Assembly (NCBI GenBank): GCA_964016885.1
Contig: OZ024757.1
Coordinates: 32,426,001 to 32,490,000 of the forward strand
Direction of reading: 5' to 3'
Source of the DNA: Eledone cirrhosa
Taxonomy: Eukaryota
DNA: 64,000 bases
The notes beneath the pieces were generated by a model. The model worked only from the letters and a program-made list of their open reading frames with translations, did no database searches and was not told where the DNA came from. The position numbers and the translations under genes are program-made. The stretch's first letter is position 1. Every line of letters starts with the position of its first letter. Shown in pieces: positions 2,629-64,000 of this stretch.

Positions 2629-5600
2629 GATAGCAACTAACAGTGCTGCGATCGAGTGTGGCTTTTTAGCCCAGCCAATGATCCAAAATGTCTTGCACAG
2701 AGTCGGCAACCAAAACATTTACTGGGAATAGTCGGCTGTGGTTGGAGTTCGTGTACTTTTGCATGTCGCTTGAGTCCTCCTGCTGATTTACATTCTCTAC
2801 CACATGTTTGGCAAGCATGATGAGTAGCATCTCCAACAGCAGCCTGGTAGTCAACCACTGGTCTTACTTTATGACTGCGAAGATGACTTTCGAGTCCAGC
2901 TTTGCTTAGGCAGAGTCTCGCACAGACGCTGCATGTCAGAAACATAGGAGGACCCTCGCCGTCTGGAAGTGCAACAGCAATACCCTTCCTCACGTCCCGC
3001 TTTACTTTCTCGTGTGCGATTCGAGATGCCTCAAAGGCAACTTTTCCCTCATATACAGTCTTTCTCCATTTATTACGATCAGCAGCAATATTTTCCCATG
3101 TATCAGCAGAGATGTTAGCGTCTCTCAGAGAGGCCTTCAAGGAATCCTTATACCTCTTTTTTGGTTTATGTGGCGGTCGTTTTCCTTTAACCAACTCTCC
3201 ATAGAAGAGTTGTTTTGGTATTCTAGAATCCTTCATCCTGGCAAGGTGACCACTCCAACGGAGTCGCTGCTTAAGCACAAGAGCTTCTATACTGTCACAC
3301 ATAGAGCTTTCCAAAATCTCGACATCACTGATGTGGTCCCTCCAGCGAACGCCATGTATCCGTCTGAGACACATCTGATGGAAACGCTCCAATTGCTCAA
3401 GGTGGCGTCGATATGTGACCCAGGTCTCGCAGGCATAAAGAAGACAAGAGAGTACACATGCCCTGTACACCCCTACCTTTGTCCTCCTGCATATGTCTCG
3501 CCGACCCCAGAGTCGCCTTTCTAGCTTTCCGAAAGCATCACTTGCTTTCCTAATCCTAAGTGAGATTTCACTGTCAAGGTTGCCGTATCGATTGACAGTG
3601 CTTCCCAGGTAGACAAACTGATCAACCACTCCAAGTCGTTCGCCATACACATAGATGTTTGGTTCAGTGTACTGCCTACCAGGTGCAGGTTGGTACATGA
3701 CGACGGTTTTCTTGAGACTGACAGTCAAACCCAGGGCAGTGCAAGCGTCAGAAAATACATTCAAAATGTGCTGCATATCACTCTCTGTGTGCGCTACAAG
3801 ATCGCAATCATCTGCATACAAGAGGTCTCTTATGACTGATGTAAATACTTTTGTCTTCGCAGCAAAGCGCCTGATGTTAAATATGCTGCCTGAGGTTCGA
3901 TATCGGATGTAAACACCATGCTCGCAATTCCTGAATGCAATACAGAAAACCATTGCAAAGTATATGGCAAACAGGGTCGGTGCTGGAATATCCCCCTGTT
4001 TCACTCCATTTTTTACTGAGATAGGCTCCGACATGTTACCTCCGACATTAACCCAAGCCCTCATGTCGTCATGGAAAGACCTAACTAAAGCAAGGAACTT
4101 ATCAGGGCAACCAAGTTTCTGGAGAACCTTCCATAATGCATCTCTGTTGACAGTATCGAAAGCCTTTGTCAGATCGACAAAAACCTGATACAGATCCAAG
4201 CCCTGTTCAATGCACTTCTCCTGGAGCTGTCTAGCTGAGAAGATCATATCAGTAGTGCCGCGTCCAACACGAAAACCAGATTGACTTTCAGGAAGGACAC
4301 AATCTGCAATGTGTGTCAGCAGACGGTCCAGAAGCACCCTACATAAAACTTTCCCCACGACAGAAAGCAATGATATACCTCTGTAGTTCCCACAATCATT
4401 CCTGTTACCCTTTCCCTTGTACAAGACCACCATTACTGCATCTCTCCAGTCCTCAGGCACGGATTCATTAGCCCATATCCTTCCAAACAGAGAGTGAAGA
4501 TGTTGCAGGAGTCTCTCACCACCATATTGTAGGAGCTCAGCATGTATGCCATCCATACCTGGAGATCTTCCACTGTTCAGCTTCGAAATAGCCACTGCAA
4601 CCTCCACAAGTGTCGGAGGCTCTGCGAGAGCTACTTTCACAGGACTTTCCGGAATGAGATTGAGGAAATCTTCACTGACGACAGACGGCTGATTCAAAAG
4701 ATCATCAAAGTGCTCCCGCCACCTTCGTAGAATTCCCTGTGAGTCACGAAGAAGTTCTTTGCCATCCTTGCTGCGAATCGGTGTCACCAGAGAAGAAGAC
4801 GGTCCATAAACCTCACGCAAGAGACTGTACAACAGCTTTGTGTTATTGCAATCAGACGCAGTTTGTATCTCACCAGCCTTCTCACTCCACCACTGATCCT
4901 TCATCTGAGAAAGACTCCGCCTAACACGTGATTTTACATCCCTGAGCTCCTCATGCAACGTATTCCTCTCCTGTGGTCTTGCCGTCAAGTAGCGTGACAG
5001 AGCGCGCCTCCTATCAGCCAACAAGTCATCTATATGCACATCTTTCTCATTAAACCAGTCCTGATGTTTTCTCTGCACCAATCCCAGAACACGTCTGCCT
5101 ACATCATAAACCGACTTTTTAAGGGTCGGCCAATCCTCACCAAGATCTGCAGCCTGCATCTCTTCTTCCAATGTCCTCTTCACATTTTTATCCTTAAGAC
5201 GAGCAGCATTCAATCCTTTGGGCAGGGTAACACCAGGAGCCCGGATTTTACGTTTGGTGATTAGATTCACTTTTGCGCGTACCAGGCGGTGGTCCGTCCA
5301 GCACTCAGCTCCACGAAGAACACGAACACACCGCACATCCTGTCTGTCACGCATCCTGACTAGGACGTAGTCCAAAAGATGCCATTCCTTAGATGCAGGA
5401 TGCATCCATGTGGTCTTGAATTTGTTCTTTTGTTGGAACATGGTGCTGGTAACACACAGATCCAGCTCCTCACACATCTGCAGCAAGAGCATACCATTGC
5501 TGTTACACTTTCCCACCCCATGCCTTCCGATTACATTCCATGTGTTAAAATCCCTACCCACTCTAGCATTAAAGTCACCAAGCACGATGACTTTGTCTGC

Positions 5601-5843
5601 CTGAGGGATATTTCTTAAAACACCTTTCAAGGCATGGTAAAAGGACAGTTTTTCTTCATCGACAGAATTCATAGTTGGAGCATACACACTCACCAGGGTA
5701 GCATATCTTCCCTTGTCCAGCGGAACTCTCATGGACATAAGACGCTCACTAATCCCCACTGGGAATTCTTCCAATTTATTCACCAGTACAGTCTTAACAG
5801 CAAATCCTACCCCAGCCTCTCTTCTGGTTCCTTCATCTCTTCC
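2361..5843 (-). mobile_element. RTE-clade non-LTR retrotransposon, 5'-truncated, young
   Basis: Single APE-RT ORF, 3' UTR ending in stem-loop TGGCCATACTCG-ATAA-CGAGGGGGCAGCCATCA followed by (TGTA)n, and a long TSD. Confidence 0.95.
2637..5843 (-). CDS. RTE ORF: N-truncated APE endonuclease, reverse transcriptase, three C2H2 zinc fingers
   Basis: APE motifs GVGFAV, SVYAPT, LGDFNARVG, LLDYVL, TDHRLV; RT motifs NYRGISLL, QSGFR, FVDLTKAFD, GVKQGD, YADD, YLGS; RLRWSGHL; C2H2-type fingers at the C-terminus. The first ~104 aa of the 6155-start ORF are microsatellite read-through. Confidence 0.95.
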   Translation of the reverse strand, partial: GRDEGTRREAGVGFAVKTVLVNKLEEFPVGISERLMSMRVPLDKGRYATLVSVYAPTMNSVDEEKLSFYHALKGVLRNIPQADKVIVLGDFNARVGRDFNTWNVIGRHGVGKCNSNGMLLLQMCEELDLCVTSTMFQQKNKFKTTWMHPASKEWHLLDYVLVRMRDRQDVRCVRVLRGAECWTDHRLVRAKVNLITKRKIRAPGVTLPKGLNAARLKDKNVKRTLEEEMQAADLGEDWPTLKKSVYDVGRRVLGLVQRKHQDWFNEKDVHIDDLLADRRRALSRYLTARPQERNTLHEELRDVKSRVRRSLSQMKDQWWSEKAGEIQTASDCNNTKLLYSLLREVYGPSSSLVTPIRSKDGKELLRDSQGILRRWREHFDDLLNQPSVVSEDFLNLIPESPVKVALAEPPTLVEVAVAISKLNSGRSPGMDGIHAELLQYGGERLLQHLHSLFGRIWANESVPEDWRDAVMVVLYKGKGNRNDCGNYRGISLLSVVGKVLCRVLLDRLLTHIADCVLPESQSGFRVGRGTTDMIFSARQLQEKCIEQGLDLYQVFVDLTKAFDTVNRDALWKVLQKLGCPDKFLALVRSFHDDMRAWVNVGGNMSEPISVKNGVKQGDIPAPTLFAIYFAMVFCIAFRNCEHGVYIRYRTSGSIFNIRRFAAKTKVFTSVIRDLLYADDCDLVAHTESDMQHILNVFSDACTALGLTVSLKKTVVMYQPAPGRQYTEPNIYVYGERLGVVDQFVYLGSTVNRYGNLDSEISLRIRKASDAFGKLERRLWGRRDICRRTKVGVYRACVLSCLLYACETWVTYRRHLEQLERFHQMCLRRIHGVRWRDHISDVEILESSMCDSIEALVLKQRLRWSGHLARMKDSRIPKQLFYGELVKGKRPPHKPKKRYKDSLKASLRDANISADTWENIAADRNKWRKTVYEGKVAFEASRIAHEKVKRDVRKGIAVALPDGEGPPMFLTCSVCARLCLSKAGLESHLRSHKVRPVVDYQAAVGDATHHACQTCGRECKSAGGLKRHAKVHELQPQPTIPSKCFGCRLCARHFGSLAGLKSHTRSQHC

Positions 5844-6025
5844 ATAACCTGTAAGAACATACATACACATATACATATATGCATGCATACATCCATACAA
5901 ACAAGACAGAGAAACAGTGACACATACATACATACAGGCATACATACATACATACATACATACATACAGGCATACATACATACATACATGCATACATACA
6001 TACATACATACATACATACATACAT
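5843..6025. repeat. Target-site duplication of the RTE insertion, copy on the element's 5' side
   Basis: Direct repeat of 2179-2361, offset 3664 bp. Confidence 0.9.
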
Positions 6026-6111
6026 ACATACATACATACATACATACTGACTGACTGATTGACACAGACAAATGGACATACACACACGCACACACACACA
6101 CACACATACAT

Positions 6112-6145
<34 letters not shown>

Positions 6146-6240
6146 GATCTTCCAACCATCATCGGTATTTCACGGTAGATCACTGATGAAGGACCACTTT
6201 ATTCATATGTAACCCATTTGCAACTCCGCAGCACGTTTAT

Positions 6241-34564: not shown

Positions 34565-34980
34565 TATGAAAGGTGGGTGAAAGTGGCGAGAATGGCCCGA
34601 GTGAATGGGCCTTCTCTCTATATCAGCCTGTAGGTTGAGGAAAAGGAGGAGGAGAGGAAAGGAGTACAAGCTCTTCGTACTCCTGAAGATGAGGGTTGCA
34701 CATTTTTTTTTCGGGGGTATGTGTTACCCATATAAACTGTCTCCCTCTATTGGGGAAAATCGACTAACTTTTTAAATTCCATTTGTGATAACATTTTACA
34801 CGTTTTTATTGTATGTAAACTTCCCCCTTTGTATTTGTCCCCTTCTTTTGTGCCCCTGTGGCTAATAAAGAAATATATCTATCTTTTGTCCCCTTCTTTT
34901 GTGCCCCTGTGGCTAATAAAGAAATATATCTATCTTTTGTCCCCTTCTTTTGTGCCCCTGTGGCTAATAAAGAAATATAT
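34565..34980 (+). mobile_element. 3' fragment of the Tx1 family with a triplicated 51-bp terminus
   Basis: YERWVKVARMARVNGPSLY..L* and a 3' UTR homologous to 55380-55685; begins after tctatctata; terminal unit occurs three times from 34834. Confidence 0.9.
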
Positions 34981-36352
34981 ATATCTATATATACACACAT
35001 GCACACAGATACATATAAACATATACATACACATGTATTTATGTATATATAGATATACATATATATATGTAAGTATGCACACGTACAGACACACATATAT
35101 ATATATATATATACACACATTTATATACATATACATATTTATGTATGTGTTATATCGAACATTAATAATAATGTTCGATGTATGTATATATATATATATA
35201 CATAAATATATTCGTATGTACGCACGTACATACATATATACGTGTACAGAGTTACATGCATACATACATGCCATTTCATTCACACATATACACATATACA
35301 CATATACACATATGCTTGTACACTCAGGCTTACTTACATGCATGTACATACAAATGTACATACAAATGTATATGCATACATACATGCATGCATTTACATA
35401 CATACGTACATGCATGCATACATACAAACATACATACATAGATACATATATACATACATGCATACATACATATATGTCTACATGCTTGTACGCATACTTA
35501 CATACATATATGCCTACATGCTATACACATACATACATGCTTGTATATACATATAAATAAGATTAAACGCTCAGCAATTGAATATTGAGTGATATCGGGG
35601 CCAATAAATTGCGAGGCAAAGATAATATCAAGATTTTATATTCGGTTTTTAAGATTCCATGAAACTTTCAAATGCTCTTTAAGGAATTACAAGATGGCTG
35701 CGGTAAAACGATCTAGCACATTTGGCGTCCATATTGGACGCTAAGATGATGTGAGACTAACTTATCTACACAGATTTCGCAACAGAATTGCGCAAAGGTT
35801 TATGTCTGTTTACCTTTTACATACATACATATATATATATATATAAATATATATATATGTGTCTCTGTGTGTGTGTGTGTGTGGACATATATGTGAATAA
35901 GTATGTTGGTGTGTATGATTTTGTGTAGGTGTATGTGTATGTTCATATATGTGTGTTTGTGTAATTATGTGTATTAATGCGTGCATGTGTGTGTATGTTT
36001 ATATATGTGTGTTTGTGTAATTATGTGTATTAATGCGTGCATGTGTGCGTATGTTTATATATGTGTGTTTGTGTAATTATGTGTATTAATGCGTGCATGT
36101 GTGTGTATGTTTATATATGTGTGTTTGTGTAATTATGTGTATTAATGCGTGCATGTGTGTGTATGTGTATGTTTATATGTGTGTTTGTGTAATTATGTGT
36201 ATAAATGTGTGCATCTGTGTGTAAGTGTATGTCTATATGTGTGTACATATATGAATGTGTGTGTGTCTGTATTATGTGCGTCGTTATGTCTATGTATGTA
36301 AGTGCATGTGTGAGTCTATGTATATACGTGTATATAAAGGTATGTCTATATG

Positions 36353-49954: not shown

Positions 49955-50114
49955 CACATACAGATCTCTCTCTCTCTATCTCTCTACCTATCCTATTTAT
50001 CTATCTAACAACAGATCTCTCTATCTATCTCTCTCTCTATCTATCTATCTAACTACAGATATATCTCTCTCTATCTCTCTACCTATCCTATTTATCTATC
50101 TAACAACAGATCTC

Positions 50115-50187
<73 letters not shown>

Positions 50188-50193
50188 ATATCC

Positions 50194-50232
<39 letters not shown>
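49955..50232. repeat. (TATC)n/(TC)n tract, the insertion site of the Tx1 element
   Basis: Perfect (TATC)n run abuts the element's 5' end. Confidence 0.95.
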
Positions 50233-50233
<1 letters not shown>

Positions 50234-52014
50234 CTGAAGAACAAAAAATAATTACAACAAAATTAGACATTGAAACAAACAAACAAAATGAAAAAACAAA
50301 TGTTAAGGAAAATGAGCAAACAGAAAACAAACAAACAGAAAATAATACAAATAACGACAGGGCAACTTTCGCCCAGAAAACAAAGCAATCCATTACATAC
50401 ACACCAATTGACCTAACTGCCGCCAGAGAAAAACTGGCCGAAGCAAAGAAACATATTGTTTTGGGGGAAAACGGAATGTTTTCCATTAACTCCCCCCCAG
50501 AATTCAAGAAAGCCAGAGCAGAAAACACAGTTATATACAGAACTATACTAAACCAGTCAAGAAAGCCAGCACAGCCCAGCCAAATGGAAATAGAGTTAGT
50601 CCTAAAAGACTATATGAAGAATATTCTCTTCATACGAAAGGACCGACTCTATGGCAGCATTTCGGTCCTAACAAGAGACAAAGAAACGGCGGTTCAGCTT
50701 TCCCTAAGCCCACTCTCGTCGACAACATATAGCTTCTATCCCTCCTACATGGGTAGAAGAACTCAGAGAATAAAAGTAAAAACAATGCTGCCCACAATGG
50801 ACTTCTGGTGGGCTATTGCTGGCTTCATTGATATGGGCGAAGACACTATGCTGTCAATGGGGAAGGCAACTGGAGATGCGTTCCTGGGAATGGGCCTCGA
50901 CATACTAGTCCAAATGAGGCCCGAAAGAATAGCACAAATCCCGGATCGCATCTGGCTGGATGACCTTACCCCAATAGACATAATTGTAGAGGGGAGAAGA
51001 CCAGCATGCTATTTATGCATGGAAAGGGGACACGTTAAGGCTAACTGCCCGAAACGTATCCCCCAAAAAGGACTATTGCCCACACCCACCACAAACAGTA
51101 CACCAGCACCACCCACCTCCAAAAATACACTAATACCACACACAGCAAACAAAATACAGACACCACCAACCACAAACACAACACAAACATCACCACCACC
51201 AGCACCAAACACAAGCACGACACAAAAATCACCACCACCAACCACAACACAAACATCACCACCACCATTACCAACCACAAGCACGACACAAACATTACCA
51301 CCACCACCACCACAAAACCCATTCCAAACAAATAATAAAAAAAACAGTAACAAATCTACCCCTCCCGCAAAAAAAAAACAACCACACAACACGTCCCTCC
51401 CACCTAGCGCTGAAGAGTTTCCCCCAACTTCTGAAGAAGAAGGAGGAGAAGCCTTCAGACAAGTTAAAAGAAAAAAAAGAAAACACACACCCAGCACACC
51501 ACAAATAACCCACACACAAACACCAACTCCAATCAAAAACACCCCACCCTCAACAAACAAAAATAAATCTGCGCCTCCCCTCTCCGAAACATTGACAGCA
51601 TCACAAAAAAAGACGTTGCAATACACATATATAAATAAAGAAAACAAAAAACTGGTTAAATTAATAAACAATAACCCTATGGTGCAGACCGAAGGGCCAA
51701 ACTTTATCTCAACAGAGAACTTCACCCATTTAAAAATGATAAAGGTCCCTCTGGACCTTTATCGTTCCTTAAAAGAACAATTTAGACGGGACGTGAGCCC
51801 CCCCTGTTTAAAACCGTTGAATCGCGTCCTCTTGAAAGATTTCCCCATAACCGCCCCTCTCCCTGACACAACTCCAAATACCCCAACCCCACCACACACG
51901 TGTACCCCCACACCACCACAAAACATCCCTCCACCCAACACACCTGATGCCATGGAAATTACGCCACCCGGAGAGGTAAGTGCTTTTCTTTCTTCACTTT
52001 CAACACCAAAATAG
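50233..52014 (+). CDS. ORF1, gag-like nucleic-acid-binding protein, N-truncated
   Basis: Zinc knuckle CYLCMERGHVKANC, P/T-rich disordered region, basic VKRKKRK; native start missing. Confidence 0.88.
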
Positions 52015-52019
52015 ATCAA

Positions 52020-55000
52020 TTGAGAGTTGGCTGTTTGAACGCGCGTGGCCTGAGCTCAGCTTGGAAGCAAGCAAAGCTTCTAAGTGACCTCAGGTCACAA
52101 AGTATAGATGTGATGGTTGTTTGCGAGAGCCGGATCAGCAGCGTGAGACAGCTGGCGCCCGCCTTCGATGACTTTGAGATGCACGCATCTCTCTGTCAAC
52201 CCGGAGGCGGGGGGGGAGTTGCCGTACTGCTGGATAAACGTCTGACTCTCGACGTACAGATTGTTCACTCGGACCCGGGGGGTCGATTACTGGTGCTGGA
52301 CGTCGGAGGTGGTGAAGGCGGGGCTTTCAGACTGGTCGGTCTTTATGCTCCCTTCGGGGCGGAGAGAGCCGACTTCTTCCAACGTCTGGAGACTTTTCTA
52401 GGAACGTCGCGTTCCCTGCTTTTAGTGGGGGACTGGAATGGAATCCTAGATGCGCGTTGGGACTATGCAGGGGCATGTCCCGATAGAGGGGGGTGTAGCA
52501 GCCTCAAGGGGTTACTCGATCGATTCGACCTGGTCGATAGATTTCGACTAGATTGTCCAACTGCGCCAACCTGGACCTGGGCAAACCGCAGTGGACAATC
52601 TAGATCGTACCTAGATAGGTTTTTGGTTAGGAGTAAGGATAGGGACGTATTTAGTTGTCCAGAACTGATCATGGTTGGCTATTCAGATCACAAATTAGTG
52701 ACCTGCGTGGTCAACCTTGATAGAACGCATAGACAGGGTCCCGGTTACTGGAAGATGAACTTGTCCTTACCGACAAAGAAAGATTACAGAAACCGGATTA
52801 GTAGCTTAGTTAAGATGCGGTTGACGGGAGCGATCGTCAACAGTAGGTGGTGGATATCTCTAAAGAGAGAGATTAGAGTAAGTTCGATAGGTTACAGTAA
52901 GGAACTAGCGGCGAATACAAATAGGAGGGAAAGGGAGTTAACAGATAAACTAGAAGAGGCGATTAGGAGCGGAGACGTAGCCAGAGTGTTAGCGACGAGA
53001 ACGGCATTGAGCCAGTTCTTTGACGCGAAGCACGAAGGCTGCGTTGTCCGAAGTAAAATACGTGCTTTAGGAAACGAGGGGACCAAAGCTGTTAGCTGGG
53101 CCCGCGTGACAGAAGCCAAGAGTGGGATTAAATCCACCATTCGGTCTTTGCGAGACCAGGATGGACGGGTGATCCTTGAACCTGAGCGAATGTGCGAGAC
53201 CTTTCAAAGGCACTTTGCTCGACTGTTCGGAGGTGGCGGGGGGCCGGACGGGGATGTGGACTTCGGTCCATACCTCGACGGTCTACCGCGTCTTTCGAGC
53301 GGCGAAGCGGAGTGCTGCGAAGGGCCAATCACAGCCACTGAAATCGGGGAAGCGCTCAGCCAATGCAGCAGACGCAAATCCCCGGGTCTCGATGGTCTAC
53401 CATACGAACTTTATTTAGCTATGCCGGTCTTGTTCTCCGAACTCCTCGAGGCTGTCTATTGCAACTGGCAACAGAACGGGAGAATTCCCTGTTCTGTGAC
53501 CAAGGGCGTGGTCACGCTAGTGAGGAAGGACGAGAGCAAGGGGGACGACTTAAGTAACTTTAGGCCCATAACTCTGCTGAATGCAGAGTTACAGATTTTG
53601 GCCAAGGTGTTGACGAAGAGGTTGGCGCTTGTGGTGGGTGGTTTGGTGGGAGACGCGCAGACATGCGCTATCCCGTCCAGGTCCATTCACGACAACCTCC
53701 ACCTCATGCGATACATCATAGAGAGGGTTGGCTACGAACCCGGCTTTGGTGGGGCCCTGATCAACTTGGATCAATCTAAGGCGTTCGATAGGGTCGACCA
53801 TGGTTACCTGGATGCGGTGCTAGCGGCGGCGGGCTTCGGACCCGTTTTCAGGGGCTGGATTTCTGCCATGCACAGTGGCAACATCTACTCTAGGATTAAA
53901 GTAAACGGCTACCTCTCGGAGCCGTTTCAAATCACCCGATCCATCAGACAGGGGTGCCCCCTCTCCTCCCTTCTGTACGTATTGACTCTCGAGCCACTGC
54001 TGCGGAAGTTGGAGTTGCTGCGGGGCATACCCCTGGAACCGGGATTGCACAAAGCGGTCTCGGCCTATGCCGATGACGTAACAGTAATGGTGGCGGACGC
54101 CTCGGAAATCGGGGCGATCGCCACCCTACTGGAGGAATACGAAAGGCTGACGGGGGCTAAGCTGAACCAGGACAAGTCAGTCGGTTTGCAACTCGGAACG
54201 TGGAGGGGCAAACCGATGCCGTTAGACGGTGTCGTCGGGCGGTGGACGGAGGGCCCGGTGAAGCTGCTCGGGGTCTGGTTCGGACCGGACCTCCAGGTGG
54301 AGAAGAATTGGGGCGAGGTGACGAGCAGGGTGTTTGCGCTGACCCAGAAGTGGGCCAAGTGCAAACTATCACTGAAAGGTCGGGCGGAGGTGACGAACGC
54401 TTACATAGCGTCCGTCATCTACTACCGCCTGACCGTCGTGCCTTGCCCCAAGGAAAAGCTCACCATCATGGAACGCATGCTCTTCCAGTTCCTCTGGAAG
54501 AAGCGGCCTCCCATGGTGAGGAGATCCATCTGCTGCCAGCACCCTTCGAAAGGAGGGCTGGGTATGCCGTGGCTGTTGATGCGTAGGCACGCATTGAGGC
54601 TACGGCATCTACAGGTATTCCTCAACGGTCAGCCGGTGTGGGCCCCGTTTGTGAGGCGAGCCTTCCCACAGCTCGTCTCGCTCACCGAACTGCAATCCTG
54701 GGTGAAGCAAAGACCGAGAAAAATGGGCAACTGGCACACTGAGTGTGCCCAGGCGCTCACGGCTATCTGGCAAGCGGACCCGACTGTCAGTGGAGAATCC
54801 ACCTCGACATTCTATAGAGGGTTGGTGGCTAGCAGGGGCGACGACACCCTTGGAGAGTCGCTAGGCATGGAGGAGGACGAACTGGCCAGCCTGTTCGGTA
54901 GAACTTTCGGCCCGGGACCCATGGACAACTTCCAGAGGTCCCTAGCCTGGCAGTGTTACCGGGGGGCTCTGCCCGTTCGAGAAAAGCTCTACAGACACGG

Positions 55001-55448
55001 GCGCCCGGGCAGGGATCCCGCGAAAAAGATCTGTCCCAGATGCGTGCGCGACGAGGAAACCGTTGCGCATGCACTGGTACACTGCCCGGGCGTTGCCGAT
55101 CTGTGGGGCTACGTCGAACGACTGCTGTCGCGTGTGGCGCCGATTCGATTAACCGCCGAGTCTGTGGTGAACATCAAGCCGCCTCCTCCCTTCAGAAATG
55201 AAGCAGAGGCGGTCTTTCTGTGCGTAATAGCCATGATGAAAGAGGTTGTGTGGTGGACGCGCCTGAAAGGTCTGAGGTCGGGTGACTTTCTCTCCGGCCA
55301 TCACCTGGTTTACTTCTTCCGATACCACTTCGGAAGAAGAATCAGGATGGAGGGAGAAGTGCTTGGTCCCAGACAGTTTTATGAAAGGTGGGTGAAAGAA
55401 GCGAGAATGGCCCGTGTAAATGGGCCTTCTCTCTACATTGTTCTGTAG
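52020..55448 (+). CDS. ORF2: APE endonuclease, reverse transcriptase, C-terminal CCHC-type zinc domain (TTG start)
   Basis: CLNARGL, VCES, LYAP, GDWN, YLDRFL, SDHKLV; GPGYWKMN (Tx1-typical); SPGLDGLPYE, NFRPITLLN, LDQSKAFDRV, RQGCPLS, AYADD, KGGLG, CPRC..DEETVAHALVHC. Confidence 0.95.
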   Translation: MRVGCLNARGLSSAWKQAKLLSDLRSQSIDVMVVCESRISSVRQLAPAFDDFEMHASLCQPGGGGGVAVLLDKRLTLDVQIVHSDPGGRLLVLDVGGGEGGAFRLVGLYAPFGAERADFFQRLETFLGTSRSLLLVGDWNGILDARWDYAGACPDRGGCSSLKGLLDRFDLVDRFRLDCPTAPTWTWANRSGQSRSYLDRFLVRSKDRDVFSCPELIMVGYSDHKLVTCVVNLDRTHRQGPGYWKMNLSLPTKKDYRNRISSLVKMRLTGAIVNSRWWISLKREIRVSSIGYSKELAANTNRRERELTDKLEEAIRSGDVARVLATRTALSQFFDAKHEGCVVRSKIRALGNEGTKAVSWARVTEAKSGIKSTIRSLRDQDGRVILEPERMCETFQRHFARLFGGGGGPDGDVDFGPYLDGLPRLSSGEAECCEGPITATEIGEALSQCSRRKSPGLDGLPYELYLAMPVLFSELLEAVYCNWQQNGRIPCSVTKGVVTLVRKDESKGDDLSNFRPITLLNAELQILAKVLTKRLALVVGGLVGDAQTCAIPSRSIHDNLHLMRYIIERVGYEPGFGGALINLDQSKAFDRVDHGYLDAVLAAAGFGPVFRGWISAMHSGNIYSRIKVNGYLSEPFQITRSIRQGCPLSSLLYVLTLEPLLRKLELLRGIPLEPGLHKAVSAYADDVTVMVADASEIGAIATLLEEYERLTGAKLNQDKSVGLQLGTWRGKPMPLDGVVGRWTEGPVKLLGVWFGPDLQVEKNWGEVTSRVFALTQKWAKCKLSLKGRAEVTNAYIASVIYYRLTVVPCPKEKLTIMERMLFQFLWKKRPPMVRRSICCQHPSKGGLGMPWLLMRRHALRLRHLQVFLNGQPVWAPFVRRAFPQLVSLTELQSWVKQRPRKMGNWHTECAQALTAIWQADPTVSGESTSTFYRGLVASRGDDTLGESLGMEEDELASLFGRTFGPGPMDNFQRSLAWQCYRGALPVREKLYRHGRPGRDPAKKICPRCVRDEETVAHALVHCPGVADLWGYVERLLSRVAPIRLTAESVVNIKPPPPFRNEAEAVFLCVIAMMKEVVWWTRLKGLRSGDFLSGHHLVYFFRYHFGRRIRMEGEVLGPRQFYERWVKEARMARVNGPSLYIVL

Positions 55449-55704
55449 GTGAAGAAGTGAAGAGGAAAGGGGGAGCGCCTCCTCTCTGGGCTTCCCCCGC
55501 GAAAAGAGTTGCACACTTTTCGGGGGTATGTGCAATCCCCAACACGCCCCCTCCCTTTTGAGGACTTTTTATTGTTATATTATTATTGTTATTCCTTTTT
55601 TCTTTACTCGATTTATGTAAACTCCCCCACTGTGTAAATGTCCCCTTCTTTTGTGCCCTCGTGGCAAATAAATAGAAATTTATCTATCTATCTATCTCTC
55701 TATC

Positions 55705-56230
55705 AGCCGATTAAATTGACCGCCGAGTCCGTGATGACAATCAAACCGCCTCCCCTCTTCACAAAGGAAGCAAAGGCGGTTTTTCTGTGCGTAATAGCCA
55801 TGTTGAAAGAGGTTGTTTGGTGGACACGATTGAAAGGTCTGAGGTCAGGCAACTTCCTCTCTGGCCATAGTCTGGTCTACTTCTTCCGATATCACTTCGG
55901 AAGAAGGATAAGAATGGAGAGAGAGGTGCTTGGCCACAGGCAGTTTTATGAAAGGTGGGTGATAGTGGCGAGAATGGCTCGTGTAAATGGGCCTTCTCTG
56001 TATACCATCCTGTAGGTAAAGAAGTAAAGGAGAGGGGAGCACCTTCTCCATGTGCTCCCCGGGCAAAGGATTGCACACTTTTTCGGGGGTGTGTGCAACC
56101 CCCATCACGTCCCCTCCCTTTTGAGGTTATTTTCGATTATTTTCATGTTACACCCTTTTTACTCGATTATATGTAAACTCCCCCTTTGTATTTGTCCCTT
56201 CTTTTTATGCCTTTATGGTAAATAAAGAAA
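55705..56230 (+). mobile_element. 3' fragment of a related, more diverged Tx1 subfamily in tandem behind copy 1
   Basis: PIKLTAESVMTIKPPP...ARMARVNGPSLYTIL* and 3' UTR; bounded by (TATC)n on both sides. Confidence 0.92.
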
Positions 56231-56457
56231 TCTATCTATCTATCTAACTACAGATATATCTCTCTCTATCTCTCTACCTATCCTATTTATCTATCTAACA
56301 ACAGATCTATCTATCTATATATCTATATATCTATATATTTGTCTGTTTGTATGTATGTCTTGATTATATCTATCTATCTATCCATCCATTTACCTACCCA
56401 TCCGTCAACCTATGTATTTATCATTCTAAAGACCCAGAAGAAACACCGACAGTCATA

Positions 56458-56617
56458 ACAATTGTTTCTACTTTTGGCACAAGGCCAGCAAATACCCAGT
56501 ACATAACTGGTACTTTATTTTACTGACCCCGTAAGGATGAAAGGCAAAGTTAACCTCGACGGGATTTGAACTCAGACAGTAAAGGGACCTAACTATGCTG
56601 CAAAGCATGGCGTCCGG
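56458..56617 (-). mobile_element. Type-A SINE, head-truncated
   Basis: Reverse complement of tail, core and B-box. Confidence 0.85.
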
Positions 56618-56679
56618 AGGAAATAATGCTGTACTCCTGTGTTTCAATTTAGCAAATGGTAATGAAAGGGTTAAGTAAT

Positions 56680-57345
56680 CATATTGATGGTCTCCCTACA
56701 GCCCCGGCGGACAGAATGGAGAAGGCGTTTCTCCGGAGGATGGTAAGGGAGATGCGCTGGAAGAGCCATTCCAACTCGCGAGGCTCACACCAGCGGCTGG
56801 CCAGCTCGGCGCCTATGGCGGTGAGTAGGGAGGGAGCCCAGAAGTCTCCACTGCCAAGGGGACGACCGCAAGCCTGACGGAGAGCGACCAGTACTTGGAG
56901 AGTTTGGCCTCCTCAGTCCGACGTGCAGCAGAACCTGGGTTAGTCGCAAACTGCACCAGGTTGCGGCAGCCAGAGTAGGCCCATTCAACCTCGACACACT
57001 CGCCACTCTCACCAATCTTTCATAAAACACACTAAAAGGCAACACCTCCCACTCTAACTTCGCCTTCCTCTTTAAATAATTGTTTCTAATTTAGGCACAA
57101 GGCCAGCAAATACCCAGTGCATTACTGGTACTTTATTTTATCGACCTCGTAAGGATGAAAGGTAAAGTCAACCTCGGCGGGATTTGAACTCAGATCGTAA
57201 AGGGACTTAACTATGCTGGAAAGCATTGTGTCCGACCCTCTACCGATACTGCCAATCCACCACCCTTCCTCTTTAAATAATGAACGCTGTCTATATAAAC
57301 CCCATTAAATTCCTTGATCATTCAACTATTGACACTGAAACCCCG
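56680..57345 (-). mobile_element. Old, diverged 3' fragment of a Tx1-like element, interrupted by a SINE
   Basis: EVLPFSVFYERLVRVASVSRLNGPTL parallels EVLGPRQFYERWVKEARMARVNGPSL; boundaries approximate. Confidence 0.6.
57081..57263 (-). mobile_element. Type-A SINE with an 18-bp TSD
   Basis: ccttcctctttaaataat at 57063-57080 and 57264-57281. Confidence 0.92.
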
Positions 57346-57406
57346 TATACACACACACACACCTTTCCTTCCTTCCTCTCTCTTCATACATACATACATA
57401 CATACA

Positions 57407-57438
<32 letters not shown>

Positions 57439-57463
57439 CATACATACATACATACATACACAT

Positions 57464-57508
<45 letters not shown>

Positions 57509-57618
57509 CGTGTGTGTATGTGTGTATCTATATATATATTATATATATATATATTTTTATATATTTAGATAGATGTATATATATATATGTGTGTGTGTGT
57601 GGTGTAAATGTATGTATT

Positions 57619-57688
<70 letters not shown>

Positions 57689-58739
57689 ATATATATATAT
57701 ATACAATATATATCGATCTATATCGAACGGGCACACTGATATATGATGGGAGAGTTGAAAATAAAATGACTGATGGAAGAGAAAGCCAATGTAGGTCAAA
57801 GAGGAGAGTGTGAAAGATGAGATGGTGGTTCCCCTTTTTGGGTGGTGGTGGTGGTGGTGGTGGTGGTGGGGTTGGTATGTAGTGGTGTTGGAGGGGTGTG
57901 TGTGTGGGGGGGGGGTGGAGTTTAAGAGTATTTTTGTTGTTGCTTGTGGTGGTGCTGTTGCTGGTGATGGTGGTGGTGGTGGTGGTGGCGATGTTGGTGG
58001 GGGATGGGGTGAAGTTTAAGAGCGTTTTTATTATTGTTTGTGGTGGTGGTGGTGGGGTGATGGTGACGGTGGAGGTGGTGGTGGTGGTGGAAGATGATGG
58101 TGACGGTGGAGGTGTTCGTGGTCTTGGTGGTGATCGTGGTGGTGATCGTGGTGTTGGTAGTGCTGGTAATGGCGGTGTTGATGGTGGTTGTGGTGATGGT
58201 GGGGTTAGTGTTCACGGTGGAGGTGGGGGTGGTGGTGGTGAGAAGAGGCAGGAAACTACGTGAGCGATAGACGGCTTTGGAAAATGTGGAACAGAATGGC
58301 CTATGAATCAGAAACTGTTACACAGACAGACAGACAGACAGACAGATAAATAGATAGATAGAAGATAGATAGATAAGCAAGCAGACAGGCAGGCAGACAG
58401 ACAGATAGATAGACAGTCACACAAATAGACAGACAGGCAGACAGACAGACAGATTGACAGAAGGACAAGTATAGAGACAGACAGACAGGCAGGGAAGTAT
58501 AGAGATAAATTTCTATTTATTTGCCACGAGGGCACAAAAGAAGGGGACATTTACACAGTGGGGGAGTTTACATAAATCGAGTAAAGAAAAAAGGAATAAC
58601 AATAATAATATAACAATAAAAAGTCCTCAAAAGGGAGGGGGCGTGTTGGGGATTGCACATACCCCCGAAAAGTGTGCAACTCTTTTCGCGGGGGAAGCCC
58701 AGAGAGGAGGCGCTCCCCCTTTCCTCTTCACTTCTTCAC

Positions 58740-61700
58740 CTACAGAACAATGTAGAGAGAAGGCCCATTTACACGGGCCATTCTCGCTTCTTTCACCCAC
58801 CTTTCATAAAACTGTCTGGGACCAAGCACTTCTCTCTCCATCCTGATTCTTCTTCCGAAGTGGTATCGGAAGAAGTAAACCAGGTGATGGCCGGAGAGAA
58901 AGTCACCCGACCTCAGACCTTTCAGGCGCGTCCACCACACAACCTCTTTCATCATGGCTATTACGCACAGAAAGACCGCCTCTGCTTCATTTCTGAAGGG
59001 AGGAGGCGGCTTGATGTTCACCACAGACTCGGCGGTTAATCGAATCGGCGCCACACGCGACAGCAGTCGTTCGACGTAGCCCCACAGATCGGCAACGCCG
59101 GGGCAGTGTACCAGTGCATGCGCAACGGTTTCCTCGTCGCGCACGCATCTGGGACAGATCTTTTTCGCGGGATCCCTGCCCGGGCGCCCGTGTCTGTAGA
59201 GCTTTTCTCGAACGGGCAGAGCCCCCCGGTAACACTGCCAGGCTAGGGACCTCTGGAAGTTGTCCATGGGTCCCGGGCCGAAAGTTCTACCGAACAGGCT
59301 GGCCAGTTCGTCTTCCTCCATGCCTAGCGACTCTCCAAGGGTGTCGTCGCCCCTGCTAGCCACCAACCCTCTATAGAATGTTGAGGTGGATTCTCCACTG
59401 ACAGTCGGGTCCGCTTGCCAGATAGCCGTGAGCGCCTGGGCACACTCAGTGTGCCAGTTGCCCAGTTTTCTCGGTCTTTGCTTCACCCAGGATTGCAGTT
59501 CGGTGAGCGAGACGAGCTGTGGGAAGGCTCGCCTCACAAACGGGGCCCACACCGGCTGACCGTTGAGGAATACCTGTAGATGCCGTAGCCTCAATGCGTG
59601 CCTACGCATCAACAGCCACGGCATACCCAGCCCTCCTTTCGAAGGGTGCTGGCAGCAGATGGATCTCCTCACCATGGGAGGCCGCTTCTTCCAGAGGAAC
59701 TGGAAGAGCATGCGTTCCATGATGGTGAGCTTTTCCTTGGGGCAAGGCACGACGGTCAGGCGGTAGTAGATGACGGACGCTATGTAAGCGTTCGTCACCT
59801 CCGCCCGACCTTTCAGTGATAGTTTGCACTTGGCCCACTTCTGGGTCAGCGCAAACACCCTGCTCGTCACCTCGCCCCAATTCTTCTCCACCTGGAGGTC
59901 CGGTCCGAACCAGACCCCGAGCAGCTTCACCGGGCCCTCCGTCCACCGCCCGACGACACCGTCTAACGGCATCGGTTTGCCCCTCCACGTTCCGAGTTGC
60001 AAACCGACTGACTTGTCCTGGTTCAGCTTAGCCCCCGTCAGCCTTTCGTATTCCTCCAGTAGGGTGGCGATCGCCCCGATTTCCGAGGCGTCCGCCACCA
60101 TTACTGTTACGTCGTCGGCATAGGCCGAGACCGCTTTGTGCAATCCCGGTTCCAGGGGTATGCCCCGCAGCAACTCCAACTTCCGCAGCAGTGGCTCGAG
60201 AGTCAATACGTACAGAAGGGAGGAGAGGGGGCACCCCTGTCTGATGGATCGGGTGATTTGAAACGGCTCCGAGAGGTAGCCGTTTACTTTAATCCTAGAG
60301 TAGATGTTGCCACTGTGCATGGCAGAAATCCAGCCCCTGAAAACGGGTCCGAAGCCCGCCGCCGCTAGCACCGCATCCAGGTAACCATGGTCGACCCTAT
60401 CGAACGCCTTAGATTGATCCAAGTTGATCAGGGCCCCACCAAAGCCGGGTTCGTAGCCAACCCTCTCTATGATGTATCGCATGAGGTGGAGGTTGTCGTG
60501 AATGGACCTGGACGGGATAGCGCATGTCTGCGCGTCTCCCACCAAACCACCCACCACAAGCGCCAACCTCTTCGCCAACACCTTGGCCAAAATCTGTAAC
60601 TCTGCATTCAGCAGAGTTATGGGCCTAAAGTTACTTAAGTCGTCCCCCTTGCTCTCGTCCTTCCTCACTAGCGTGACCACGCCCTTGGTCACAGAACAGG
60701 GAATTCTCCCGTTCTGTTGCCAGTTGCAATAGACAGCCTCGAGGAGTTCGGAGAACAAGACCGGCATAGCTAAATAAAGTTCGTATGGTAGACCATCGAG
60801 ACCCGGGGATTTGCGTCTGCTGCATTGGCTGAGCGCTTCCCCGATTTCAGTGGCTGTGATTGGCCCTTCGCAGCACTCCGCTTCGCCGCTCGAAAGACGC
60901 GGTAGACCGTCGAGGTATGGACCGAAGTCCACATCCCCGTCCGGCCCCCCGCCACCTCCGAACAGTCGAGCAAAGTGCCTTTGAAAGGTCTCGCACATTC
61001 GCTCAGGTTCAAGGATCACCCGTCCATCCTGGTCTCGCAAAGACCGAATGGTGGATTTAATCCCACTCTTGGCTTCTGTCACGCGGGCCCAGCTAACAGC
61101 TTTGGTCCCCTCGTTTCCTAAAGCACGTATTTTACTTCGGACAACGCAGCCTTCGTGCTTCGTGTCAAAGAACTGGCTCAATGCCGTTCTCGTCGCTAAC
61201 ACTCTGGCTACGTCTCCGCTCCTAATCGCCTCTTCTAGTTTATCTGTTAACTCCCTTTCCCTCCTATTTCTATTCGCCGCTAGTTCCTTACTGTAACCTA
61301 TCGAACTTACTCTAATCTCTCTCTTTAGAGATATCCACCACCTACTGTTGACGATCGCTCCCGTCAACCGCATCTTAACTAAGCTACTAATCCGGTTTCT
61401 GTAATCTTTCTTTGTCGGTAAGGACAAGTTCATCTTCCAGTAACCGGGACCCTGTCTATGCGTTCTATCAAGGTTGACCACGCAGGTCACTAATTTGTGA
61501 TCTGAATAGCCAACCATGATCAGTTCTGGACAACTAAATACGTCCCTATCCTTACTCCTAACCAAAAACCTATCTAGGTACGATCTAGATTGTCCACTGC
61601 GGTTTGCCCAGGTCCAGGTTGGCGCAGTTGGACAATCTAGTCGAAATCTATCGACCAGGTCGAATCGATCGAGTAACCCCTTGAGGCTGCTACACCCCCC

Positions 61701-62168
61701 TCTATCGGGACATGCCCCTGCATAGTCCCAACGCGCATCTAGGATTCCATTCCAGTCCCCCACTAAAAGCAGGGAACGCGACGTTCCTAGAAAAGTCTCC
61801 AGACGTTGGAAGAAGTCGGCTCTCTCCGCCCCGAAGGGAGCATAAAGACCGACCAGTCTGAAAGCCCCGCCTTCACCACCTCCGACGTCCAGCACCAGTA
61901 ATCGACCCCCCGGGTCCGAGTGAACAATCTGTACGTCGAGAGTTAGACGTTTATCCAGCAGTACGGCAACTCCCCCCCCGCCTCCGGGTTGACAGAGAGA
62001 TGCGTGCATCTCAAAGTCATCGAAGGCGGGCGCCAGCTGTCTCACGCTGCTGATCCGACTCTCGCAAACAACCATCACATCTATACTTTGTGACCTGAGG
62101 TCACTTAGAAGCTTTGCTTGCTTCCAAGCTGAGCTCAGGCCACGCGCGTTCAAACAGCCAACTCTCAA
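58740..62168 (-). CDS. ORF2 APE-RT, 1142 aa (TTG start)
   Basis: Same motifs as 52020-55448; about five amino-acid differences by eye. Confidence 0.95.
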   Translation of the reverse strand: MRVGCLNARGLSSAWKQAKLLSDLRSQSIDVMVVCESRISSVRQLAPAFDDFEMHASLCQPGGGGGVAVLLDKRLTLDVQIVHSDPGGRLLVLDVGGGEGGAFRLVGLYAPFGAERADFFQRLETFLGTSRSLLLVGDWNGILDARWDYAGACPDRGGCSSLKGLLDRFDLVDRFRLDCPTAPTWTWANRSGQSRSYLDRFLVRSKDRDVFSCPELIMVGYSDHKLVTCVVNLDRTHRQGPGYWKMNLSLPTKKDYRNRISSLVKMRLTGAIVNSRWWISLKREIRVSSIGYSKELAANRNRRERELTDKLEEAIRSGDVARVLATRTALSQFFDTKHEGCVVRSKIRALGNEGTKAVSWARVTEAKSGIKSTIRSLRDQDGRVILEPERMCETFQRHFARLFGGGGGPDGDVDFGPYLDGLPRLSSGEAECCEGPITATEIGEALSQCSRRKSPGLDGLPYELYLAMPVLFSELLEAVYCNWQQNGRIPCSVTKGVVTLVRKDESKGDDLSNFRPITLLNAELQILAKVLAKRLALVVGGLVGDAQTCAIPSRSIHDNLHLMRYIIERVGYEPGFGGALINLDQSKAFDRVDHGYLDAVLAAAGFGPVFRGWISAMHSGNIYSRIKVNGYLSEPFQITRSIRQGCPLSSLLYVLTLEPLLRKLELLRGIPLEPGLHKAVSAYADDVTVMVADASEIGAIATLLEEYERLTGAKLNQDKSVGLQLGTWRGKPMPLDGVVGRWTEGPVKLLGVWFGPDLQVEKNWGEVTSRVFALTQKWAKCKLSLKGRAEVTNAYIASVIYYRLTVVPCPKEKLTIMERMLFQFLWKKRPPMVRRSICCQHPSKGGLGMPWLLMRRHALRLRHLQVFLNGQPVWAPFVRRAFPQLVSLTELQSWVKQRPRKLGNWHTECAQALTAIWQADPTVSGESTSTFYRGLVASRGDDTLGESLGMEEDELASLFGRTFGPGPMDNFQRSLAWQCYRGALPVREKLYRHGRPGRDPAKKICPRCVRDEETVAHALVHCPGVADLWGYVERLLSRVAPIRLTAESVVNIKPPPPFRNEAEAVFLCVIAMMKEVVWWTRLKGLRSGDFLSGHHLVYFFRYHFGRRIRMEREVLGPRQFYERWVKEARMARVNGPSLYIVL

Positions 62169-62173
62169 TTGAT

Positions 62174-63997
62174 CTATTTTGGTGTTGAAAGTGAAGAAAG
62201 AAAAGCACTTACCTCTCCGGGTTGCGTAATTTCCATGGCATCAGGTGTGTTGGGTGGAGGGATGTTTTGTGGTGGTGTGGGGGTACACGTGTGTGGTGGG
62301 GTTGGAGTATTTGGAGTTGTGTCAGGGAGAGGGGCAGTTATGGGGAAATCTTTCAAGAGGACGCGATTCAACGGTTTTAAACAGGGGGGGCTCACGTCCC
62401 GTCTAAATTGTTCTTTTAAGGAACGATAAAGGTCCAGAGGGACCTTTATCATTTTTAAATGGGTGAAGTTCTCTGTTGAGATAAAGTTTGACCCTTCGGT
62501 CTGCACCATAGGGTTATTGTTTATTAATTTAGCCAGTTTTTTGTTTTCTTTATTTATATATGTGTATTGCAACGTCTTTTTTTGTGATGCTGTCAATGTT
62601 TCGGAGAGGGGAGGCGCAGATTTATTTTTGTTTGTTGAGGGTGGGGTGTTTTTGATTGGAGTTGGTGTTTGTGTGTGGGTTATTTGTGGTGTGCTGGGTG
62701 TGTGTTTTCTTTTTTTTCTTTTAACTTGTCTGAAGGCTTCTCCTCCTTCTTCTTCAGAAGTTGGGGGAAACTCTTCAGCGCTAGGTGGGAGGGACGTGTT
62801 GTGTGGTTGTTTTTTTTTTGCGGGAGGGGTAGATTTGTTACTGTTTTTTTTATTATTTGTTTGGAATGGGTTTTGTGGTGGTGGTGGTGGTAATGTTTGT
62901 GTCGTGCTTGTGGTTGGTAATGGTGGTGGTGATGTTTGTGTTGTGGTTGGTGGTGGTGATTTTTGTGTCGTGCTTGTGTTTGGTGCTGGTGGTGGTGATG
63001 TTTGTGTTGTGTTTGTGGTTGGTGGTGTCTGTATTTTGTTTGCTGTGTGTGGTATTAGTGTATTTTTGGAGGTGGGTGGTGCTGGTGTACTGTTTGTGGT
63101 GGGTGTGGGCAATAGTCCTTTTTGGGGGATACGTTTCGGGCAGTTAGCCTTAACGTGTCCCCTTTCCATGCATAAATAGCATGCTGGTCTTCTCCCCTCT
63201 ACAATTATGTCTATTGGGGTAAGGTCATCCAGCCAGATGCGATCCGGGATTTGTGCTATTCTTTCGGGCCTCATTTGGACTAGTATGTCGAGGCCCATTC
63301 CCAGGAACGCATCTCCAGTTGCCTTCCCCATTGACAGCATAGTGTCTTCGCCCATATCAATGAAGCCAGCAATAGCCCACCAGAAGTCCATTGTGGGCAG
63401 CATTGTTTTTACTTTTACCCTCTGTGTTCTTCTACCCATGTAGGAGGGATAGAAGCTATATGTTGTCGACGAGAGTGGGCTTAGGGAAAGCTGAACCGCC
63501 GTTTCTTTGTCTCTTGTTAGGACCGAAATGCTGCCATAGAGTCGGTCCTTTCGTATGAAGAGAATATTCTTCATATAGTCTTTTAGGACTAACTCTATTT
63601 CCATTTGGCTGGGCTGTGCTGGCTTTCTTGACTGGTTTAGTATAGTTCTGTATATAACTGTGTTTTCTTCTCTGGCTTTCTTGAATTCTGGGGGGGAGTT
63701 AATGGAAAACATTCCGTTCTCTCCCAAAACAATATGTTTCTTTGCTTCGGCCAGTTTTTCTCTGGCGGCAGTTAGGTCAATTGGTGTGTATGTAATGGAT
63801 TGCTTTGTTTTCTGGGCGAAAGTTGCCCTGTCGTTATTTGTATTATTTTCTGTTTGTTTGTTTTCTGTTTGCTCATTTTCCTTAACATTTGTTTTTTCAT
63901 TTTGTTTGTTTGTTTCAATGTCTAATTTTGTTGTAATTATTTTTTGTTCTTCAGACTTGGGGGGCGTGGCAGAGCTAATGGCAGACATGTCTGCCAT
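62174..63997 (-). CDS. ORF1, gag-like CCHC protein, 607 aa
   Basis: ATG in aagATGG context; CYLCMERGHVKANC knuckle. Confidence 0.9.
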   Translation of the reverse strand: MADMSAISSATPPKSEEQKIITTKLDIETNKQNEKTNVKENEQTENKQTENNTNNDRATFAQKTKQSITYTPIDLTAAREKLAEAKKHIVLGENGMFSINSPPEFKKAREENTVIYRTILNQSRKPAQPSQMEIELVLKDYMKNILFIRKDRLYGSISVLTRDKETAVQLSLSPLSSTTYSFYPSYMGRRTQRVKVKTMLPTMDFWWAIAGFIDMGEDTMLSMGKATGDAFLGMGLDILVQMRPERIAQIPDRIWLDDLTPIDIIVEGRRPACYLCMERGHVKANCPKRIPQKGLLPTPTTNSTPAPPTSKNTLIPHTANKIQTPPTTNTTQTSPPPAPNTSTTQKSPPPTTTQTSPPPLPTTSTTQTLPPPPPQNPFQTNNKKNSNKSTPPAKKKQPHNTSLPPSAEEFPPTSEEEGGEAFRQVKRKKRKHTPSTPQITHTQTPTPIKNTPPSTNKNKSAPPLSETLTASQKKTLQYTYINKENKKLAKLINNNPMVQTEGSNFISTENFTHLKMIKVPLDLYRSLKEQFRRDVSPPCLKPLNRVLLKDFPITAPLPDTTPNTPTPPHTCTPTPPQNIPPPNTPDAMEITQPGEVSAFLSSLSTPK

Positions 63998-64000
63998 CTT

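Follow-up and report, generated by a model that had tools for sequence, protein, structure and literature searches.

A 5.7-kb LINE of the L1/Tx1 type with two ORFs, referred to here as family A, is present in two copies in the 64-kb stretch of Eledone cirrhosa DNA that we analysed (the window). It is highly probable that family A is young and belongs to the APE-type elements of the L1 superfamily (Tx1 being the likely clade), and that both its ends lie in (TATC)n/(GATA)n microsatellites; the likely reason is that the endonuclease of the element nicks the GATA strand, from which reverse transcription is then primed.

Copies of family A and related fragments in the window

Copy 1 (50233..55680, + strand) is truncated at element nt 256, and consequently lacks the 5' UTR and the start of ORF1. 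Copy 2 (58508..64000, − strand) is full length, with both ORFs open; it extends 211 bp beyond the window to a 5' end at the window-equivalent position 64211, where its first letters are TGATAGAGTAAGAC, and a 37-nt perfect ATCT run stands directly before this end. An alignment of the copies over 5452 sites shows 22 differences (99.6% identity). In both of them ORF2 is open and contains APE, RT, and zf-RVT domains, which confirms the two open ORF2 copies of the preliminary description.

That description had also placed (TATC)n at both ends of copy 1, and this was found. Upstream is a target tract (50115..50233, + strand) with perfect runs at 50115-50186 (72 nt) and 50194-50233 (40 nt), the last bases of which overlap a TCT microhomology at the 5' junction; TATCTATCTATCTATCT lies downstream. 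The 3' UTR (55449..55680, + strand) ends in AATAAA-TAGAAAT-T, with the AATAAA at 55667-55672 and, as noted before, no poly(A). The next 19 nt, TATCTATCTATCTATCTCT (55681..55699, + strand), are identical to 19 nt at the 5' junction, and this match, including the 3-nt microhomology, is likely a target-site duplication. The 3' end of copy 2 reads GAAATT-TATCTC and adjoins TGTC/TATC tracts, again in line with the earlier reading.

A 78-bp stretch (50036..50113, + strand) is repeated exactly at 56231-56308, bracketing copy 1 and an older fragment, and a further partial unit is present at ~49958-50020. This repeat may be an older minisatellite that was there already, or else a duplication of unusual length.

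Two fragments had been assigned to the same family as copies 1 and 2. One of them, at 55706..56231 (+ strand; earlier given as 55705-56230), is 5'-truncated and has TATC on both sides, as claimed. The other, at 34565..34874 (+ strand), is a 5'-truncated 3' fragment with the 3' end of a family described below as family B; it has TCTATCTA upstream and TATATCTATC downstream, and its flanks read as they had been reported, the fragment coming after TCTATCTA-TA and terminating in GAAAT-ATATCTATC. Measured against copy 2, the fragments are 81% and 69% identical to family A, respectively. The one-family picture thus holds for copies 1 and 2, but the two fragments represent sister families. Two more family B 3' termini of ~50 bp stand in tandem at 34887..34987 (+ strand), with TATC/TA letters after each.

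Other repeats were also seen in the window. A short interspersed repeat, which we take to resemble an octopus SINE, occurs twice between the family A copies (~56470-56620 and ~57090-57260). A second LINE (2637-6158, − strand) has an open frame of 1173 aa with APE, RT, and weak C2H2 fingers; it is presumably RTE-like, going by its motifs, and served as outgroup only.

Coding regions and classification

ORF1 of copy 1 (50233..52014, + strand) is without its first ~18 codons, and encodes an RNA-binding-like region, one CX2CX4HX4C knuckle, and a long Thr/Pro-rich tail. In copy 2, ORF1 (− strand) begins at an ATG at 64009 and encodes 611 aa. ORF2 of copy 1 (52011..55448, + strand) encodes 1145 aa, counted from an ATA, and comprises the APE endonuclease, an RT with the YADD motif, and zf-RVT; that of copy 2 extends over 62177-58740 (− strand). 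The endonuclease domain of family A corresponds to window 52011-52730. The ATA overlaps the ORF1 stop at the place where the sister families have ATG, and was found in 57 of 62 family A copies, the other 5 being unmatched; AAATAG occupies this overlap (window 52011-52014 and 62174-62177) in 56 of the 62. There is no AUG before the endonuclease core in family A ORF2; the frame has its first Met at residue 35, already within the endonuclease.

It may be noted that a splice-donor-like GGT(A/G)AGT and a pyrimidine tract are found ~40 nt before the ORF2 start (window ~51975-52014) in family A, in another TATC family (L205), and in the (ATT)n families, despite their different ORF1s. A GT..AG stretch at the end of ORF1 was considered as an intron fusing ORF1 to ORF2 and was rejected, as such a splice gives a stop two codons on.

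In Pfam searches, ORF2 matched PF03372 (E 2e-11), PF00078 (E 1e-23), and PF13966 (E 3e-5, below its cut-off). Residues 26-876 could be aligned to human L1 ORF2p in one alignment of 168 bits, the score for R2 being 85 at most, and the APE catalytic motifs are intact and align to those of L1 ORF2p. At the level of the predicted protein, membership in the L1 superfamily of APE-type non-LTR elements is established.

In a phmmer search with ORF2, Tetraodon BAC82605 scored 340 bits, a YTX2-labelled Polyodon protein 323, and a fragmentary TX1-labelled protein 92; the scores of the fish Tx1-labelled or Tetraodon pol-like proteins are about twice that of human L1. An RT tree (FastTree), in which labelled L1-clade rows were absent, placed the octopod clade in an unresolved group with Tx1-labelled fish proteins. 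ORF1 proteins of the Tx1 clade have an RNA-binding region and a CCHC zinc knuckle. In family A, the CCHC knuckle CX2CX4HX4C was seen directly in ORF1 (PF00098, E 0.006, below cut-off), and the Atlas look-alikes of ORF1 were CCHC proteins (0.92) and ZCCHC3-type RNA-binding domains (0.90). Placement in the Tx1 clade is likely, judging from sequence comparison. Among named proteins, an Argonauta hians protein was closest to ORF2 (67%, for part of the query), and in the RT tree this protein and the octopod elements formed one clade, sister to a 44%-identical group.

Flanks of family A across the genome

The exact 27-nt motif from the 3' end of family A occurred 618 times in the 3.0-Gb genome, the reversed control giving 0, and 599 of these ends (97%) were followed by N-TATCT. 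For N-TATCT, the background in twenty spaced 10-kb stretches was 0.23% (928 of 399,760 positions), and (TATC)2 within 14 nt of a random position was found at 0.057% (226/399,440; 20 spaced 10-kb stretches). The 20 background stretches contained 902 TA runs vs 5 TATC runs. Chance is excluded as the source of the TATC flanks.

The exact 5' motif of family A occurred 314 times. Among the first 100 listed 3' ends, 46 could be paired by position with this motif, and of the remaining 54, 34 were full length once fetched; the full-length share is at least 80 of these 100. In all 62 full-length copies with both flanks (contigs C1 and C2, and the window), TGATAG was preceded by 6-56 nt of in-phase ATCT; this sample is non-random, as it mixes top-scoring copies with copies picked for a missing exact 5' motif. 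TATC was likewise enriched in the 5' flank of 30/30 full-length copies in another count. The specificity for TATC/GATA that had been proposed is therefore upheld at both ends. As set out in the relevant part of PMC4494074, a Tx1 family is target-specific if more than 20% of its flanks are in one repeat type; for family A, the values are 97% of the 3' ends and 62/62 of the 5' ends.

TATC runs were also seen with no element adjoining them (window 29098, 29199, and 39861; loci L226, L232, and L240). After the 3' end, TATC was replaced by (TC)n at L130, L149, L193, and L197, which indicates that the letters after GAAA-NN come from the target, and in some copies the 3' TATC run was as short as 4-5 nt. 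Separately, a sequence starting with GCGGGTAAAATT was observed after TATC-type runs (L221:6627, L221:7575, and the 3' flanks of L150 and L192); this repeat is possibly a further TATC-associated element.

The 232-nt 3' UTR was 100% identical in 40 of 40 scored matches, and 19 of the 62 full-length copies had a partner at 99.5% identity or more. ORF2 was open in 15 of the 62, and both ORFs in 9. The young age suggested in the preliminary description, together with a high copy number, is supported for family A. Near-identical copies and arrays could also arise by segmental or tandem duplication, or as assembly artefacts, and not by recent retrotransposition. Tandem head-to-tail copies are indeed common, and copies 1 and 2 are inverted, 2.8 kb apart. 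However, copies whose bodies agree at 99.5-99.9% have different flanks, copy 2 has its best match (L044, 99.9%) on another contig, neighbours in arrays are 8-43 substitutions apart, and copy 1 has a truncation and a duplication of its own. We consider that such an origin deserves hardly any credence.

TATC as target DNA

Recent retrotransposition into TATC has to be weighed against a reading in which TATC is only a 3' tail (and a 5' leader) encoded by the element, the insertion itself occurring without sequence preference or into the tails of other copies. The ATCT-TGATAG junction is invariant in full-length copies, as a leader would give. Since the TATC 5' of full-length copies could be such a leader, truncated copies decide. 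Among truncated family A copies, copy 1 and L125 had TATC upstream and L128 and L158 did not, while L119, L124, and L127 were chimeras with relatives. The true truncated family A copies being few and mixed, the test rests mainly on family B, an element of 5.84 kb with 5,752 exact 3' ends that is ~80% identical to family A over ORF2 and the 3' UTR, and different in its 5' part.

We took 52 family B copies from contig C1 in listing order. Of these, 13 had the 5' end beyond the locus and 6 had internal deletions (by eye), and both groups were left out before the 5' counts; 3 were full length and 30 truncated. TATCT directly followed the 3' end in 47 of the 52. The truncation points were scattered along the element, and (TATC)2+ was nevertheless found within 14 nt of the 5' junction in 23 of the 30 truncated copies (background 0.057%). 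Many copies are arrayed, so that a preceding copy's tail could supply the TATC upstream of them, and a relative's 3' end did lie upstream of 12 of the 30. But among the 18 for which no such end was detected within 200 nt upstream, 13 still had (TATC)2+ at the junction. No TATC was present upstream of 4 of the 30 (L191, L207, L213, and L220), where a later deletion is possible. A lack of TATC enrichment in the 5' flanks of other copies had been named beforehand as an observation that would count against a TATC target; full-length family A copies (30/30 and 62/62) and truncated family B copies (23/30) gave the opposite result.

Target-site duplications starting at TATCT and reaching into non-repeat flank were found at L125 (16 bp), L184 (17 bp), L209 (17 bp), and L210 (12 bp), and also at J203_0 (21 bp) and J203_1 (16 bp); a 21-bp duplication was seen near 17.31 Mb of contig C2, at two family A copies in tandem. 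Several of these target-site duplications contain 2-4 nt of microhomology. They reach unique flank from a start at TATCT, which shows the TATC at the 3' end to be target DNA. Runs of just 4-5 nt, or (TC)n, at some 3' ends also disagree with an encoded tail. A tail-only origin of TATC is unlikely, and we would assign it a very small probability.

Sister families with other targets

A single GATA-targeting family had been proposed. That family A targets TATC is correct, but a multi-family lineage with at least three targets had been overlooked. A degenerate 3'-end motif common to the relatives occurred 39,944 times (control 159), followed by TATCT in 20,218 cases (control 1) and by ATTAT in 12,233 (control 1); 30 loci were read from the remaining ~7,500 ends.

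The (ATT)n family (loci L281-L294, L325-L354, L227, and L233) has 7,621 exact ends and an ORF2 67% identical to that of family A. NN-ATTAT was found in 26/30 loci. All four aligned 5' ends of full-length type had (ATT)n upstream, as did 5/11 truncated copies; with this low count for truncated copies, the family looks less strict. The same downstream sequence was observed after several of its copies (L227, L233, L331, and L351), which suggests insertion into a different, oppositely oriented repeat that ends in (TAA)n.

The satellite family (loci L275-L280 and L295-L324, e.g. G000 C1:4.22-4.26 Mb) has 327 exact ends, and its ORF2, with open frames, is 80% identical to that of family A. In 30/30 loci its 3' end was followed, in one phase, by NN-ACTCT of a 72-bp AT-rich satellite, and the satellite was also upstream of 8/8 full-length 5' ends and of the sole truncated copy seen. 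On C1 and C2, its copies were only near contig ends, among the matches listed. The end geometry is the same in the TATC, (ATT)n, and satellite families. Several unrelated 5' UTRs were seen on the shared ORF2 across the sister families.

In a tree of the C-terminal 625 aa of ORF2, the satellite family was nested in the TATC clade (100/100 for the clade, and 96/99 for the branch that leaves one TATC family outside). A TATC-only clade was rejected by the AU test (p = 0.028), in which the group tested was named after the first tree had been seen and 6 of the 17 rows were omitted. A TATC-targeting ancestor is the likely origin of the satellite family. Between endonucleases, the satellite family shares 82% identity with the TATC family L205 and 74% with family A, and the (ATT)n endonuclease is 58-63% identical to those of the other families. 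Apart from one residue, the hairpin loop of the satellite family, a part of the protein implicated in reading the target, equals that of L205; hence specificity need not lie in that loop. At 15 endonuclease positions the satellite family departs from a residue common to two TATC families; one of these changes, G116W, adjoins the tyrosine of the catalytic YAP motif, and so a protein change is available as the cause of a target switch.

Proposed mechanism of insertion

The phase of the junction is fixed, the element ending in GAAA-NN and TATCT following. The first nick would fall near 5'-AGATA/GATA-3', to within ~1 nt, with target-primed reverse transcription starting from it. Only 8 nt separate AATAAA from the end of the element, so that the transcript likely runs on into the TATC; it would read a few TATC units past AATAAA, pair with the nicked strand, and be copied from there, and no poly(A) would then be inserted. 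The second nick would be made 12-21 nt downstream of the first. At its 5' end, a full-length RNA likely carries some TATC as well. If this TATC paired with the target, the high full-length share of family A (at least 80 of 100 copies) and the constant phase of the joints would be accounted for.

Among informative copies, duplication of non-repeat letters was seen in 5 of 17 truncated ones (one not at the junction) vs 2 of 26 full-length ones (one locus), a difference that is not significant (Fisher p = 0.09); 2 full-length copies with the 5' end of another copy as 3' neighbour were left out of this count. The contrast would fit 5' joining by repeat pairing. Newer copies often lie in TATC left beside older ones, and head-to-tail arrays result. 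As a separate observation, the 5' end of family A, TGATAGAG (window-equivalent 64204-64211; also L031 and L165), is complementary to the target strand, so that the junction reads as a short inverted repeat.

We infer that the endonuclease is the specificity factor. It could instead be only loosely specific, for a short pyrimidine-rich core such as TCTAT, the sharp preference coming mostly from pairing of read-through RNA with the nicked target, so that families keep landing in the repeat from which they were transcribed. TCTAT does stand at an equal distance from the element end in TATC and satellite targets (NN-TATCTAT and NN-ACTCTAT), the hairpin loop W-S/T-NRSGTSRSY is found in both one TATC family and the satellite family, and there is leakage to (TC)n. 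Against this, the 15 endonuclease positions, G116W included, do distinguish the satellite family from two TATC families, and the Tx1L endonuclease alone is sequence-specific in vitro, according to the experiments in PMC1950540 that concern it. We think a leading role for RNA pairing rather unlikely, though worth serious attention; it leaves the targeting claim intact and alters its cause.

Family A may be active at the present day. Comparison of the 3' 4.5 kb of copy 2 with four runs (contig sets of ~0.1-3.8 billion letters or RAD-seq) gave no empty-site or junction-spanning evidence; relatives at 85% or more were found in the runs of three differently labelled organisms. A metagenome scan returned 4 distant loci at 25-36%, and a homologue search started from one of these yielded no labelled L1 sequence.

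On a broader view, which we put forward tentatively and hold at somewhat less than even, an octopod Tx1-type lineage of ~40,000 copies may have switched target at least twice (ATT, TATC, then the 72-bp satellite) with few endonuclease changes and a near-unchanged recognition loop, RNA-target pairing at both ends giving insertions that are in phase and for the most part full length. Such a lineage would be a site-specific LINE that is active today and can be retargeted by natural means, and it would split and multiply the GATA tracts of this genome.

Comparison with known systems

How APE-type LINEs choose their targets is poorly understood. Here, one genome holds intact, very recent families that differ in target. 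Their endonucleases share 74-82% identity between the satellite and TATC families and 58-63% between the ATT family and the rest, so that the residues and RNA ends worth exchanging are few, and such sister families would make the rules of target choice testable. GATA is a widely used class of marker microsatellite, and in these animals GATA loci can be disrupted by 5.7-kb insertions.

For LINEs, the microsatellite targets given in the portions of PMC3812793 that treat them are ACAY, AC, TC, TTC, and TAA. The Tx1 targets named in the text consulted of PMC4494074 are TC, TTC, TTCC/TTTC, U2, and transposons, to which a figure legend adds satellites, U5, and 5S. A telomere-specific Tx1 is cited from Repbase Reports in an excerpt of PMC10088271. 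In the searchable literature, a scope outside which Repbase/Dfam and Repbase Reports fall, we found no GATA-specific LINE and no cephalopod microsatellite-specific Tx1. The (TATC)n-specific LINE is thus, provisionally, a new target for a known kind of element, the microsatellite-specific Tx1. As far as that literature shows, such elements are extended to cephalopods, and GATA joins the known LINE targets.

L1-Tx1 elements as such are on record in cephalopods. In Octopus vulgaris, 13 recently active families with 421 insertions have been described (main text of PMC13282606), and young or expanded L1-Tx1 are recorded in other coleoids too (PMC8967140, in part). Unlike the present data, these records, in the sections concerned, name no target preference, and 'GATA' and 'target' have 0 occurrences in the main text of PMC13282606. 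Relatives of family A may be among these families.

Dong elements differ from family A and its sisters in clade, and have a restriction-like endonuclease. They are TAA-specific members of the R4 clade (PMC3812793, section on targets), and the repeat class is that of the (ATT)n sister family; no TAA-specific Tx1 was found in the parts of the literature on LINE targets that were covered.

Tx1L of Xenopus, like family A, has an APE-RT ORF2 and integrates sequence-specifically; its endonuclease, like that of L1, nicks the integration target, and does so alone, as described in the pertinent part of PMC1950540. Its target, however, is the Tx1D transposon. In Tx1L the hairpin loop is 11 residues long with RDGH at its tip, whereas that of family A is shorter, NRSGQSR (alignment to the LTx chimera). 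Grafting loops among L1, Tx1L, and R1 gave no clean transfer of specificity (PMC1950540, same part).

The nearest parallels are Kibi and Koshi of teleosts and the crocodilian Tx1 families, likewise Tx1-type LINEs with a specificity or preference for microsatellites and with the repeat on both flanks (Kojima 2015, PMC4494074, sections on these families). In the RT tree the octopod clade stood apart from all sampled fish proteins, none of which was labelled Kibi or Koshi. (TC)n is a Kibi/Koshi-type target and in family A is minor leakage only. The vertebrate families, as given in the same sections of PMC4494074, use (TC)n in the case of Kibi, (TTC)n in that of Koshi, and (TTCC)n and (TTTC)n in crocodilians, whereas the target of the octopod family A is (TATC)n.
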